From Candidatus Helarchaeota archaeon (GTDB lineage: Archaea; Asgardarchaeota; Lokiarchaeia; Helarchaeales; RDOG01), in contig JALGVI010000012.1 in assembly GCA_029838215.1 (NCBI GenBank), positions 30,357 to 94,356 on the forward strand: DNA of 64,000 nt, written 5' to 3'. Positions 7,223 to 11,964 of the stretch are shown here, one piece after another. The notes below the pieces were generated by a model, which saw only the letters and a program-made list of their open reading frames with translations, ran no database searches and was not told where the DNA came from. The position numbers and the translations under genes were made by a program. How positions within the stretch are numbered: the stretch's first letter is position 1; the number at the start of each line of letters is the position of its first letter.

Positions 7223-7627
7223 ATGGATGAGGAATTGACGAAAAAGCTCTCAGGAATTACCGCAAAAGAGTGCATGATTAAAGATCCGATGACGATCCCA
7301 TCAACTGAGCAAATTGCCGCAGCAGATCTTTTAATGCTCCGCAATAATATAGGTGGATTACCTGTAGTTGATGACGGCATTCTCGTAGGGATCTTGACCT
7401 TACGGGATATTCTCATTTCACGGTTCTCGCATTCTATTGGTGGAATCAAAGTTAGAGATCTCATGACGAAAAATCCAATTACAGTCACGCCTGACACGCC
7501 TCTCAAAGAGATTCTAAAGATTTACACGGAAAAAGGGATCGAACGACTTCCAGTAGTCAAGGACGGGGATGTCATTGGAATCGTGGTTCATCGAAAAATA
7601 CTTGAAAAAATACATGATAACATATAA
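7223..7627 (+). CDS. Stand-alone CBS-pair protein
   Basis: Two CBS repeats (GLPVVDDGILVGILT; RLPVVKDGDVIGIV). Confidence 0.9.
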   Translation: MDEELTKKLSGITAKECMIKDPMTIPSTEQIAAADLLMLRNNIGGLPVVDDGILVGILTLRDILISRFSHSIGGIKVRDLMTKNPITVTPDTPLKEILKIYTEKGIERLPVVKDGDVIGIVVHRKILEKIHDNI

Positions 7628-7924: not shown

Positions 7925-9139
7925 ATGAGCGTTATTCCGATGCATGACTTTTTTGAAGAAATTAAAGAAGAAAAAACATTGACGATGACGGGAAATTATG
8001 CGGTGGCAGGCGCAGTTACGCAGACAGAGCCAGATGTTATTTGTGCTTTTCCCATTACGCCTCAGACACAATCAGTAGAAGGACTAAGCGACGTGGTTAA
8101 TCATGGACGTTTAAAAGCGGCATTTGTGAATGTCGAAAGTGAACTGGCAGCCATTTCATACATTACTGCCGCCGTTATTGCAGGAGCTCGCGGCTTTACG
8201 GCGACGGCTTCTCAAGGATATCTATTAATGCACGAAGGACTCCCCATGGCAGTTGGATGGCGAGCACCGATATACATGCTCATCTCAAACCGCGCGTGGA
8301 ATGCCCCTAACCTGAGTATTTGGAACAGTTGGGAAGTCACGCTGGCAGATCACGGCTGGAACAAGATTTTTTCAGAAAACGTCCAAGAAACTTATGATGC
8401 AGCAATTCTTAGTTGCATGATATCAGAAAAAACACTTTTTCCGACCTGTTTCTGTCATGATGGGTTTATCATTTCCCATTCGGCACAAAAATTCAAGGCA
8501 ATCCCTGACGAGACCGTGAAGAAACTCACACCTCGCCGACCCAGGCATACCGTGCGAACGGATAATCCCGGCTGTTGGGGAGGTATAGTCACACCGGATT
8601 ACTTCATGGAACAACGTCGCGCCTTGGATTTGGCAAAGAAAGATGTCCCTAAAGAAATCGATGCAATGTTTGACCTGTTTGCGAAGGAAACGGGAAGAAA
8701 ATATTCGTCAATTGAAACCTTTAACATTGAAAAGGCGAAAACCGCAATAGTCACGATGGGTTCCATGTGCGGAACGATAAAACAATGGATGCGAAATGTT
8801 CCCGATATCGGACTCATCAAGATACGAACTTATCGTCCATTTCCTAGCGAAAGACTACGAAAAATTATTGAAGATAATAAAATTGAAAAATTGATAGTGC
8901 TTGAGAAAAATGATGCACCGGGCGCGCCCGTACCTCAAGTCACGCAAACGATCCTCCCCGTAACTTATCCGCTCGGCACGATCGTTCATTCTTTTATACC
9001 CGGGCTCGGTGGAAGAGACGTGACTGTTGATGAGCTTAATGCTGCAAAGAAACGAATGGAAAAGATTAACGACATGAAAGGAGACCTGTACGAATACTTG
9101 GGTGTCCGAATAAAACAAGGAGTGATTGAAGGAGAGTAG
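7925..9139 (+). CDS. porA: 2-oxoacid:ferredoxin oxidoreductase alpha subunit (PorA-type)
   Basis: GNYAVA, AFPITPQ, ESELAA, TATASQG motifs; GGTGA SD at about 7915. Confidence 0.92.
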   Translation: MSVIPMHDFFEEIKEEKTLTMTGNYAVAGAVTQTEPDVICAFPITPQTQSVEGLSDVVNHGRLKAAFVNVESELAAISYITAAVIAGARGFTATASQGYLLMHEGLPMAVGWRAPIYMLISNRAWNAPNLSIWNSWEVTLADHGWNKIFSENVQETYDAAILSCMISEKTLFPTCFCHDGFIISHSAQKFKAIPDETVKKLTPRRPRHTVRTDNPGCWGGIVTPDYFMEQRRALDLAKKDVPKEIDAMFDLFAKETGRKYSSIETFNIEKAKTAIVTMGSMCGTIKQWMRNVPDIGLIKIRTYRPFPSERLRKIIEDNKIEKLIVLEKNDAPGAPVPQVTQTILPVTYPLGTIVHSFIPGLGGRDVTVDELNAAKKRMEKINDMKGDLYEYLGVRIKQGVIEGE

Positions 9140-9143
9140 AACA

Positions 9144-10250
9144 ATGTCTTTAGAACAAAAATTTAAAGCTCGAGTCATTAAAGTCAAGGACATCCTTTCT
9201 TGGAAAACCAATAACTACCTGCTTTATTTCAACTATGATAATGAAGCATTCATGAACACGGGGATTCAAGAATCCGGTTCGACACCCTTTGGAGCTTCCA
9301 CGACAACAGGACCTGCAGGAAAAGCCATTCCGGGAAAGATTGGCATGAAACAAGACATCATAGAAGGATTTGCTTTTCTCGGCATGCAATCTGCATTCCT
9401 TGCTACGGCCTCAACCGCTTATCCTGCAGATTTTATCGGAAAAGTCGTCGAAGCATTAAAAACACCAGGAGCCGCTTTCATTCAGGTCTTGGCATCATGC
9501 GACCGCGGATGGCGCCATCCGATTAACATCTCCAATAAGGTGAACAAGCTTGCAGTAGATTCTGGTTTCTGGCCTTTATACACGATTCGCGTTAAAAATG
9601 GGCGTCCCACGTATGCACTGAATAAAAAGATAAATTATGATACGATGGAAGAAAAACTCATTGAATACTTGAACCTCATGGGACGTTTCCGTCACTTGGT
9701 TAAACCTGAATTCAAGGAACAAACAATACCTTTAGTTATTGATGCAGTCAAGGCGCGTGCTGATAATGTCATTAAACTAGTTAATACATTCGGTAATCCA
9801 GAACATCAACTAGAAACATACACCGTGAACTTCAAGGAGATTCCGCCACAAGAGATCTTGAATCCAGGACATGGACTATGTCAGGGCTGTGGGTGCGGCA
9901 TGGCTTTAAATCAATTATCTCTTGCAGCTCATTGGGTCGCAGGAAAAAATATCATCGTGACCAATAACACGTCATGTTCTGAAGTCTCATTCTCGAAAGA
10001 TGATGTTCCTAATTATAAAGTGCCTTGGGTTCACCACTTGTTTGAAACATGTGCCACGACCGGCGATGCCATTGCAACAACATACAGGATCTTAAAAGCA
10101 AAAGGTCTCTACAAAGGAGAAATCCCAAGAGTGATCGCCATTGGTGGAGATGGCTCCACTTATGATATAGGATTTCAATTTCTAAAAGCAGCACTTCATC
10201 GAGCCGGAACATTTGGCATCATGAACCCACTCATCAAGGACATTAGCTGA
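9144..10250 (+). CDS. porB: 2-oxoacid:ferredoxin oxidoreductase beta subunit, circularly permuted
   Basis: The YDNEAFMNTG...QVLASC half precedes the GHGLCQGCG...NNTSC...GDGSTYDIGFQ half, the reverse of the canonical order. Confidence 0.88.
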   Translation: MSLEQKFKARVIKVKDILSWKTNNYLLYFNYDNEAFMNTGIQESGSTPFGASTTTGPAGKAIPGKIGMKQDIIEGFAFLGMQSAFLATASTAYPADFIGKVVEALKTPGAAFIQVLASCDRGWRHPINISNKVNKLAVDSGFWPLYTIRVKNGRPTYALNKKINYDTMEEKLIEYLNLMGRFRHLVKPEFKEQTIPLVIDAVKARADNVIKLVNTFGNPEHQLETYTVNFKEIPPQEILNPGHGLCQGCGCGMALNQLSLAAHWVAGKNIIVTNNTSCSEVSFSKDDVPNYKVPWVHHLFETCATTGDAIATTYRILKAKGLYKGEIPRVIAIGGDGSTYDIGFQFLKAALHRAGTFGIMNPLIKDIS

Positions 10251-10261
10251 AAATCTGTCCA

Positions 10262-10287
10262 TATTTTCATTTTTTTTCCTTTTTCTC
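10262..10287 (+). terminator. Oligo-T tract after porB, probable archaeal intrinsic terminator
   Basis: ttttcattttttttcctttttctc directly after the stop codon. Confidence 0.4.
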
Positions 10288-10686: not shown

Positions 10687-11964
10687 ATGAATTTCGGTCA
10701 AGACGAACAAATAAATAAAAAACAAATACTTGATTTTGCCACGAACCTGAGCTTTCCAAGAAGGAATGGCTCCGAAGGGAATCTCAAAGCACGAGAATTG
10801 TTGAAGTCTTGGTTTTCGGATCTCGGTTTCAAGAACATCAATACAGAATCATTCAAATGGAATCCTCGAATTCGGCCATTATATTTTCGTTTTTTTACGG
10901 TCCCTTTAACCATTCTAATGTTCGTGGAAGTCATTACCATTATCGAGTTGATTTTTCTCCTTGTTTTCTCGGGGATTTTTACCATTCAATTAATTTGTGA
11001 GTTCACAACGGGTTGTACCATCATGATCTTGATGATAATCCTGTTTTCATTCGGACATGTTCTCACGAAATTGGCTTTTCTACACCGCGAAAGATATTTT
11101 TCATCGAAATTACGGGATGCCCAGAACATCTCAGTTGAGATTGCGGCAGAGGAAAAGCCGAAATCTAGATTGGTCATCATCGGCGCGCATTATGATAGCA
11201 TAAACACGCGTTTCGGAGATATGACGAACATAATTTTATATTTGGGTAGGTTTGCGGGTGTTTTTTTTGTTTCAATTCTCACGTTAATCTTGCCATTCGT
11301 AACGATGATCCTGCAATTCTTCCAGTTGATGTCCGTTTCCATCATTCTCAACACGATTCTTCTCATTATCGTCTTATATGCCGGATTCTCATTAATGGTG
11401 AGTTTTTTCAACACTCTTCATAATAAAAGTGAAGGGGCCATTGATAATGCATCTGGAGTTGCAGTCGTCCTAGGCTGTGCAGCATGGTTAAAGAAAAACC
11501 CACCAGCAACCGTAGACGTGATTTGTGTCCTATTTGATGTTGAAGAAGAAGGGTTGATCGGTTCGATGCATTTTGCAAGCAATAATTTGAATAAATTCGA
11601 GAAATATGGCATTGAAAAGGTTCACATGATTTGCTTGGATGGTCCTGGCTCGAAAGGAAAGCTTGGATTTTCCGGCTCCTTTGGTTTCCCGATCAAAACT
11701 ACGACAGACCGCGGAATTATCAATGAATTACAGCAAGAGGCCAACAAACTTCGGTACCAAACGAGAAAAATATGGTTTCCTTATGGTGGCTCCGATCACG
11801 TTCCATTTGGCATGTTGAAAATAGACTCCTGCCATTTCTTCTCCACGTCCATCGTCTCGAACACCATATCTGATAAAAAAGAGCTTCTTAATGAGGAAAA
11901 CCTGTTTCGTGCAACTAACATCGTGATCAATTACATTAGAGAACTGGATTCAGGCGAAATTTAG
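10687..11964 (+). CDS. Membrane-embedded M28 family metallopeptidase
   Basis: GAHYDS, GAIDNASG, DVEEEGLIGS, LDG and SDHVPF motifs, interrupted by two TM hairpins. Confidence 0.85.
   Translation: MNFGQDEQINKKQILDFATNLSFPRRNGSEGNLKARELLKSWFSDLGFKNINTESFKWNPRIRPLYFRFFTVPLTILMFVEVITIIELIFLLVFSGIFTIQLICEFTTGCTIMILMIILFSFGHVLTKLAFLHRERYFSSKLRDAQNISVEIAAEEKPKSRLVIIGAHYDSINTRFGDMTNIILYLGRFAGVFFVSILTLILPFVTMILQFFQLMSVSIILNTILLIIVLYAGFSLMVSFFNTLHNKSEGAIDNASGVAVVLGCAAWLKKNPPATVDVICVLFDVEEEGLIGSMHFASNNLNKFEKYGIEKVHMICLDGPGSKGKLGFSGSFGFPIKTTTDRGIINELQQEANKLRYQTRKIWFPYGGSDHVPFGMLKIDSCHFFSTSIVSNTISDKKELLNEENLFRATNIVINYIRELDSGEI

Follow-up and report, generated by a model that had tools for sequence, protein, structure and literature searches.

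A circularly permuted PorB-type 2-oxoacid:ferredoxin oxidoreductase beta subunit in Lokiarchaeia

Can the cofactor-binding motif of a 2-oxoacid:ferredoxin oxidoreductase (OFOR) be divided between the two ends of a chain, and would the gene still encode a working subunit? In canonical OFOR beta subunits, the motifs CxxC, C, GDG-x~25-DN and C follow one another in one chain, and GDG...N binds Mg-TPP (Mg-ThDP). An open reading frame (ORF) at 9144–10250 of the window, the whole 64,000-nt stretch of DNA analysed here, had been described in a first-pass annotation as a functional natural circular permutant of such a subunit (PorB), cut inside the cofactor loop.

The ORF was read on the + strand from an ATG at 9144 to a TGA at 10248–10250, and encoded 368 aa. 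Upstream lay a gene (7925–9139, + strand) for a porA-like alpha subunit of 404 aa. It matched POR_N and PFOR_II of Pfam (E = 2.4e-51 and 1.5e-15), which we take to be domains I and II and the partner of the permuted beta. The porA stop (TAG, 9137–9139) and the beta ATG were separated by 4 nt. A T8 tract (10270–10277, + strand) and a T5 tract (10280–10284, + strand) were found 20–35 nt past the beta stop, and are likely to be an archaeal oligo-T terminator.

The NCBIfam PorB profile (NF008819) matched the protein in two stretches of swapped order. Residues 23–192 (9210–9719, + strand) corresponded to profile positions 118–283, the canonical C-half of the PP domain, with an E-value of 7e-43 when this half was scanned alone. 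Residues 230–354 corresponded to profile positions 5–118 (E = 8e-22 with this half alone). We assigned residues 230–353 (9831–10202, + strand) to the canonical N-half, which also matched residues 5–116 of 9bt4_C. The two halves jointly spanned positions 5–283 of the 300 in the profile. A phmmer search against the PDB gave the same picture, with two swapped stretches aligned per residue on 9bt4_C (E = 1e-42); the match to 5c4i_C had an E-value of 2e-42. Pfam TPP_enzyme_C placed only its second half (profile positions 75–151), at the N-terminal residues 26–115. These swapped similarities were far beyond chance. The whole protein scored 220 bits against PorB, for which the cut-off is 405.

Three segments lay outside the profile matches. 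These were an N-terminal extension without PorB profile match (residues 1–22; 9144–9209, + strand), a linker from the old C-terminus to the old N-terminus between both matches (residues 193–229; 9720–9830, + strand), and a C-terminal extension past the end of the match (residues 354–368; 10203–10247, + strand).

The motifs followed the same swapped order. D32 and N33 (nt 9237–9242) were near the N-terminal end of the protein, and this C-half contained the DN strand and the NYDNEAFMNTGIQES motif (nt 9231–9269). The fourth cluster cysteine, C119 (nt 9498–9500), was also in the C-half. The N-half contained CxxC (C246 and C249; nt 9879–9890), C278 (nt 9975–9977) and, at the C-terminal end of the protein, G335-D336-G337 (nt 10146–10154), with the crossover helix ending at R353. 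C246, C249, C278 and C119 aligned with the canonical CxxC, C and C of the proximal [4Fe-4S] cluster, the first three visibly to 9bt4_C and C119 to the conserved cysteine of the canonical consensus. Homology therefore covered the whole PP domain, with the Mg-ThDP ligands and the four cluster cysteines present. A contiguous GDG-x(about 25–28)-DN collinear with the family model was absent from the permuted beta, its two parts being at opposite ends. The ORF thus encodes a PorB-type OFOR beta subunit (Pfam PF02775; NCBIfam NF008819/TIGR02177) in which circular permutation is genuine. The first-pass annotation had thus been right about the swapped halves, on which the separate scans and phmmer agreed, and about the places of GDG and DN, the four retained cysteines, the new extensions, the own ATG 4 nt past porA and the T-tracts past the stop.

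An unusual order of this kind could arise if the contig were chimeric or a tandem copy had been joined wrongly. The odd order itself was the only feature in favor of such an artefact, together with the lack of reads over the junction. Among the sequencing runs, no RNA run was listed as a match. A hydrothermal vent metagenome DNA run shared a 0.07 fraction of the sampled words, and no read contig in this matching run spanned the internal junction. One contig of 166 nt from the run was identical over 9134–9265, which covers the porA end, its stop and the beginning of beta; the other pieces were short conserved-motif matches from other organisms.

A word-indexed search, on the other hand, recovered more than 100 full-length homologues (about 362 aa, 53–87% identity, 96–100% query cover) from NCBI, JGI, ENA and Logan assemblies of Asgard archaea. 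Most of those in NCBI were labeled 'hypothetical protein'. The permuted beta was present in 130 of 400 sampled Asgard genomes, among them 128 of the 160 from the class of the window and in 1 of the 240 outside it. It was nearly always single-copy, also in single-contig genomes. The named carriers were Helarchaeota, Promethearchaeota/Lokiarchaeota, Ca. Harpocratesius and Ca. Sigynarchaeum. Over 100 protein clusters and 130 genomes had the same continuous ORF, the genomes coming from many groups and assemblers, and the junction (the linker) was under purifying selection (see below). Because homologues from independent assemblies, rather than being collinear with canonical PorB, had the same swapped order, the permuted beta is not an artefact; this explanation, to which we give next to no weight, is effectively refuted already. 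The arrangement is natural, as had been claimed.

An exhaustive HMMER search of 1.84 billion representatives (50% identity clusters) returned one full-length permuted representative plus fragments. The remaining matches listed were canonical in the order of their best stretch, and most of them matched in two stretches. When the motif order was checked in 312 retrieved proteins, it was permuted in 118, all of which belonged to the permuted clade.

A few contigs carried labels from elsewhere and are probably mis-binned. Two of them, labeled Bathyarchaeota (L028) and Nanopelagicaceae bacterium (L089), contained a Lokiarchaeia-type operon of gamma-delta, alpha and permuted beta with 56–61% identity to the window; binning error is a more probable cause here than gene transfer. 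In one Helarchaeota MAG the permuted beta was called as two adjoining pieces (P0297, 223 aa, and P0298, 104 aa), likely from a frameshift, a sequencing error or a pseudogene.

Conservation was examined in an alignment of 47 sequences. GDG, C119, C246, C249, C278 and the NYDNEA…NTGIQES segment were invariant. Between N30 and Q42, only positions 36–37 varied, and these were conserved in more than 90%. The linker contained two invariant residues (L212 and Y226) and two others conserved in more than 90% (R205 and F216), and L18 of the N-terminal extension was nearly invariant.

Selection was estimated from 18 independent pairs by the Nei-Gojobori method. The dN/dS of the permuted beta was 0.059 overall, with 0.049 in the C-half core and 0.051 in the N-half core. 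The values were 0.076 in the linker, 0.168 in the N-terminal extension and 0.058 in the C-terminal extension. Every segment of the permuted beta is under purifying selection. The low ratios in the linker and extensions indicated that the parts made by the permutation are constrained too.

For the phylogeny, the permuted sequences were re-ordered for alignment only, and the tree also included 42 canonical relatives and 3 outgroups. In this tree, the permuted sequences formed a monophyletic clade (SH-aLRT 100). Its stem was long, at 1.12 substitutions per site, and its internal branches were short. The clade was nested among PorB-type sequences, and its named neighbors were 'pyruvate ferredoxin oxidoreductase beta subunit' of Bathyarchaeia. 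The two canonical PorB/VorB-type genes of the window genome were placed apart from it. The permutation arose once, and strong selection maintains the swap throughout one archaeal class.

A structure model was generated with AlphaFold2 from the 47-sequence alignment (pTM 0.87, mean pLDDT 81). The GDG strand (329–334), the crossover helix (342–356) and the DN strand (26–32) were all kept, and pLDDT was about 90 or more at the DN strand and its flanks. Only the loop after DN (35–68) was modeled with low confidence, yet its sequence was highly conserved. The linker was mostly one long helix (188–216), in a block with pLDDT 83–97. The N-terminal extension formed a strand (9–13) and a short helix (14–18) with pLDDT 81–97, and the C-terminal extension a helix (358–365). 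GDG and DN would converge on one Mg-ThDP site, for which the pTM and the retained strands and helix give indirect support.

The comparisons by Foldseek and VIA-align were sequential and covered about one half of the permuted model at a time. The best matches were beta domains of PFOR and OOR (oxalate oxidoreductase), with 1b0p_A (Z 12.1), 5exd_F (Z 11.1) and 9bt4_C (Z 10.9), the last with an rmsd of 3.2 over 175 residues.

The breakpoint was located between the crossover helix (…AALxR | …) and the DN strand. In the usual alpha/beta topology, the loop between a crossover helix and the next strand is at the sheet end remote from the cofactor, and the break loop is therefore a plausible permissive site. 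The earlier description of a cut inside the cofactor loop holds for the sequence, in that the break is inside the GDG...DN motif. As wording it was loose, since the loop itself is at the sheet end away from the diphosphate and Mg.

In the ESM Atlas, no permuted cluster was found among the representatives of large clusters, where hits covered only model residues ~4–267. One bacterial cluster there, rich in Acidobacteriota, consisted of 239-aa 'hypothetical' proteins collinear with model residues 23–267, a stretch made up of the C-half, the linker and the first part of the N-half (TM 0.75 by hit length). They may represent a shortened PP domain or one with another arrangement.

The partner genes were compared among the relatives. 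The usual order was gamma-delta fusion, alpha and permuted beta, found in 62 of the 66 loci whose upstream sequence was long enough to show it. The fusion was about 285–315 aa (domain III plus a two-cluster ferredoxin domain V) and alpha about 405 aa. Alpha immediately preceded the permuted beta in 74 of the 75 related loci that reached far enough upstream. The window locus belonged to the minority, with a CBS-domain gene instead of gamma-delta upstream of porA. The alpha and gamma/delta partners of a PorB-type enzyme were both encoded, but gamma-delta was unlinked here. A gamma-delta orthologue was found alone near a contig end (C103:25439–26269, − strand; L011:1477–2421, − strand). This orthologue was convergent with an unrelated 378-aa ORF. 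It shared 60% identity with the operon-linked copy of the closest relative and no more than 32% with the other gamma paralogues of the window genome. The operon is thus split in the window genome, since gamma-delta, the first gene in most relatives, stands alone.

The genes flanking the pair in the window were a tandem-CBS-domain gene upstream (7223–7627, + strand) and an M28-family peptidase gene downstream (10687–11964, + strand), the product of which has a long, hydrophobic N-terminal half. Neither was an operon neighbor in the two relatives examined (L009 and L010). An N-terminal extension of porA was considered as a co-adaptation and rejected, its length being ordinary compared with the canonical alpha of the window genome. 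An apparent alpha-beta' fusion in another genome (G258) was a 715-aa frame that ran through the Ns of a scaffold gap.

We consider it likely, and are fairly confident, that the gene encodes a working, permuted beta subunit (PP domain) of a pyruvate-type OFOR. In such a protein, the chain would start at the DN strand and run to the old C-terminus. From there, a helical linker of ~37 residues would lead into the former N-terminus (CxxC…C), with the chain ending just past GDG and the crossover helix. The two chain ends would be side by side in the folded protein. The C-terminal GDG and the N-terminal DN would rebuild the normal Mg-ThDP site, and C246, C249, C278 and C119 the proximal [4Fe-4S] cluster site. 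The subunit would act with the adjacent PorA-like alpha and the gamma-delta fusion, which would supply the CoA-binding domain III and the two-cluster ferredoxin domain V. A small 2-oxoacid would be oxidized to acyl-CoA and CO2, with reduction of ferredoxin. Folding to the canonical three-dimensional domain, complex formation, activity and substrate are what we infer here. Function, as claimed in the first-pass annotation, is made probable by invariant cofactor residues, a dN/dS of 0.06 and operon conservation.

The reading closest to this one keeps an active, permuted enzyme and gives it another substrate or role: another 2-oxoacid, a CoA-free reaction as in OOR, or a new partner interface, with the permutation and the long stem marking the shift. 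Several observations leave space for it. The stem of 1.12 substitutions per site is long enough for a functional shift, and the new termini and linker are themselves constrained. Beta was below every equivalog cut-off (PorB, 220 of 405 bits; VorB-type, 192 of 405; OOR beta, 183 of 590), and the best NCBIfam match of the window porA, PorA_Arch, reached 307 bits against a cut-off of 550. The scores of alpha and beta were well below the equivalog cut-offs, and pyruvate is therefore a putative substrate. PorB is the closest family, as the first-pass annotation had it, but the name proves no substrate. The window genome also contains two canonical PorB/VorB-type enzymes. Finally, the three-subunit delta-alpha-beta layout is that of the Moorella OOR. 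On the other side, the best matches of all three subunits were Por-type, the nearest canonical neighbors in the tree were annotated as pyruvate ferredoxin oxidoreductase beta subunits, and in one relative a gene for an ADP-forming acyl-CoA synthetase was near the operon, which fits a CoA-dependent reaction. The OOR equivalogs (NF045790–NF045792) were not reached either, with 183 of 590 bits for beta, 144 of 500 for alpha and 95 of 230 for delta, all below the Por-type scores. We regard this change of substrate or role as possible but on balance doubtful. That the protein has lost catalysis and retains only the fold, as a scaffold or a regulatory paralogue, is very improbable. The unusual layout would suit such a protein, but all Mg-ThDP and cluster ligands are invariant class-wide, dN/dS is about 0.05 in both cores, and the alpha subunit, with which beta is presumably co-transcribed, is 64–81% conserved. 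Beta is a real OFOR subunit and very probably a functional one.

A further step from the working pyruvate-type subunit would be that the permutation was not neutral. In this case, it would have given rise to a Lokiarchaeia-specific oxidoreductase with a changed property, fixed in the core metabolism of the class, and to the first natural ThDP motif split between termini. We think this unlikely and put it forward as a speculation. The property may be substrate range, partner docking, electron path, assembly, or oxygen or redox control, and it may come from the moved chain ends together with the constrained N-terminal strand-helix, linker helix and C-terminal helix.

Among characterized systems, PorB of the Methanosarcina acetivorans PFOR (PDB 9bt4, chain C) has a homologous PP domain, with about 31–33% identity in structural alignments. 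Both proteins contain the same GDG, DNEA(F/Y)MNTGIQ and four proximal [4Fe-4S] cysteines, and both are encoded directly after a PorA-like alpha. The permuted beta differs from PorB by the swap at profile position 118 and by the addition of ~22 N-terminal residues, ~14 C-terminal residues and a linker of ~37 residues. The permuted system also differs from the four-subunit PFOR in having gamma and delta fused in one gene.

This three-subunit composition, with domains III and V fused, is shared with the OOR of Moorella thermoacetica (5c4i, 5exd and 5exe), in which the gene order is delta-alpha-beta. The fold of OOR beta matched that of the permuted beta with Z of 11.0–11.1, but OOR beta is collinear. 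OOR is CoA-independent; the permuted system gave no evidence of the same property.

In ThDP enzymes, the PYR and PP domains are reordered or placed on separate chains (transketolase, pyruvate decarboxylase and OFORs). The permuted beta resembles these whole-domain rearrangements in that modules were reshuffled and the cofactor site was kept. It differs in that the break is inside the PP domain, and the ThDP motif itself is split. No description of such a permutation was found in the open-access literature on OFOR, PFOR, ThDP enzymes and Asgard archaea, which is consistent with the earlier remark that no example had been described.

An ancient natural permutation inside a cofactor motif, maintained by selection, means that the GDG…DN motif of ThDP enzymes need not be contiguous. 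It provides a ready-made test case for the tolerance of Rossmann-like cofactor sites to changes in chain topology. For engineering, the breakpoint suggests a place where OFORs may tolerate being split or re-circularised. The permuted gene is also a clean molecular marker of one Asgard class. Lokiarchaeia are central to models of eukaryote origins and, to our knowledge, the class of the window includes the only cultured Asgard archaea. Because the permuted genes score below the family cut-offs and are labeled 'hypothetical protein', metabolic reconstructions of Lokiarchaeia may miss or miscount an oxoacid oxidoreductase.

Traces of the origin of the permutation were looked for in several ways. 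Relics of a duplication (…ALERGHD-strand-DNE) in the two extensions were sought by profile Smith-Waterman against the 42-sequence canonical alignment. Shuffled sequences scored at least as high as the real ones in 122 and 115 of 500 (positive control, 0 of 100), and such relics were rejected. Intein remnants in the extensions were not supported: of 8 comparisons, one of them made with a C-terminal intein fragment by mistake, 2 were nominally low, and these were discordant between inteins of the same site. Four candidate split-gene intermediates turned out to be truncated gene calls. Two of them were without a start Met (P0191 and P0236), and the other two began within 10 bases of contig ends (P0195 and P0241).

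Inteins were found in canonical-order PorB. Seven such proteins of other organisms (P0123, P0131, P0145, P0158, P0171, P0187 and P0263) contained LAGLIDADG inteins of about 345–550 aa where measured. Their two insertion sites were inside GDG…DN, one directly after GDGG and the other just before CYDNE, and the breakpoint of the permutation falls between them. An Atlas cluster named 'Intein splicing/LAGLIDADG … TPP_enzyme_C', with 115 members, confirmed the existence of intein-bearing proteins. Like the permuted beta, the intein-bearing PorB of Altiarchaeales (P0123) is interrupted within GDG…DN, but it becomes canonical after splicing.
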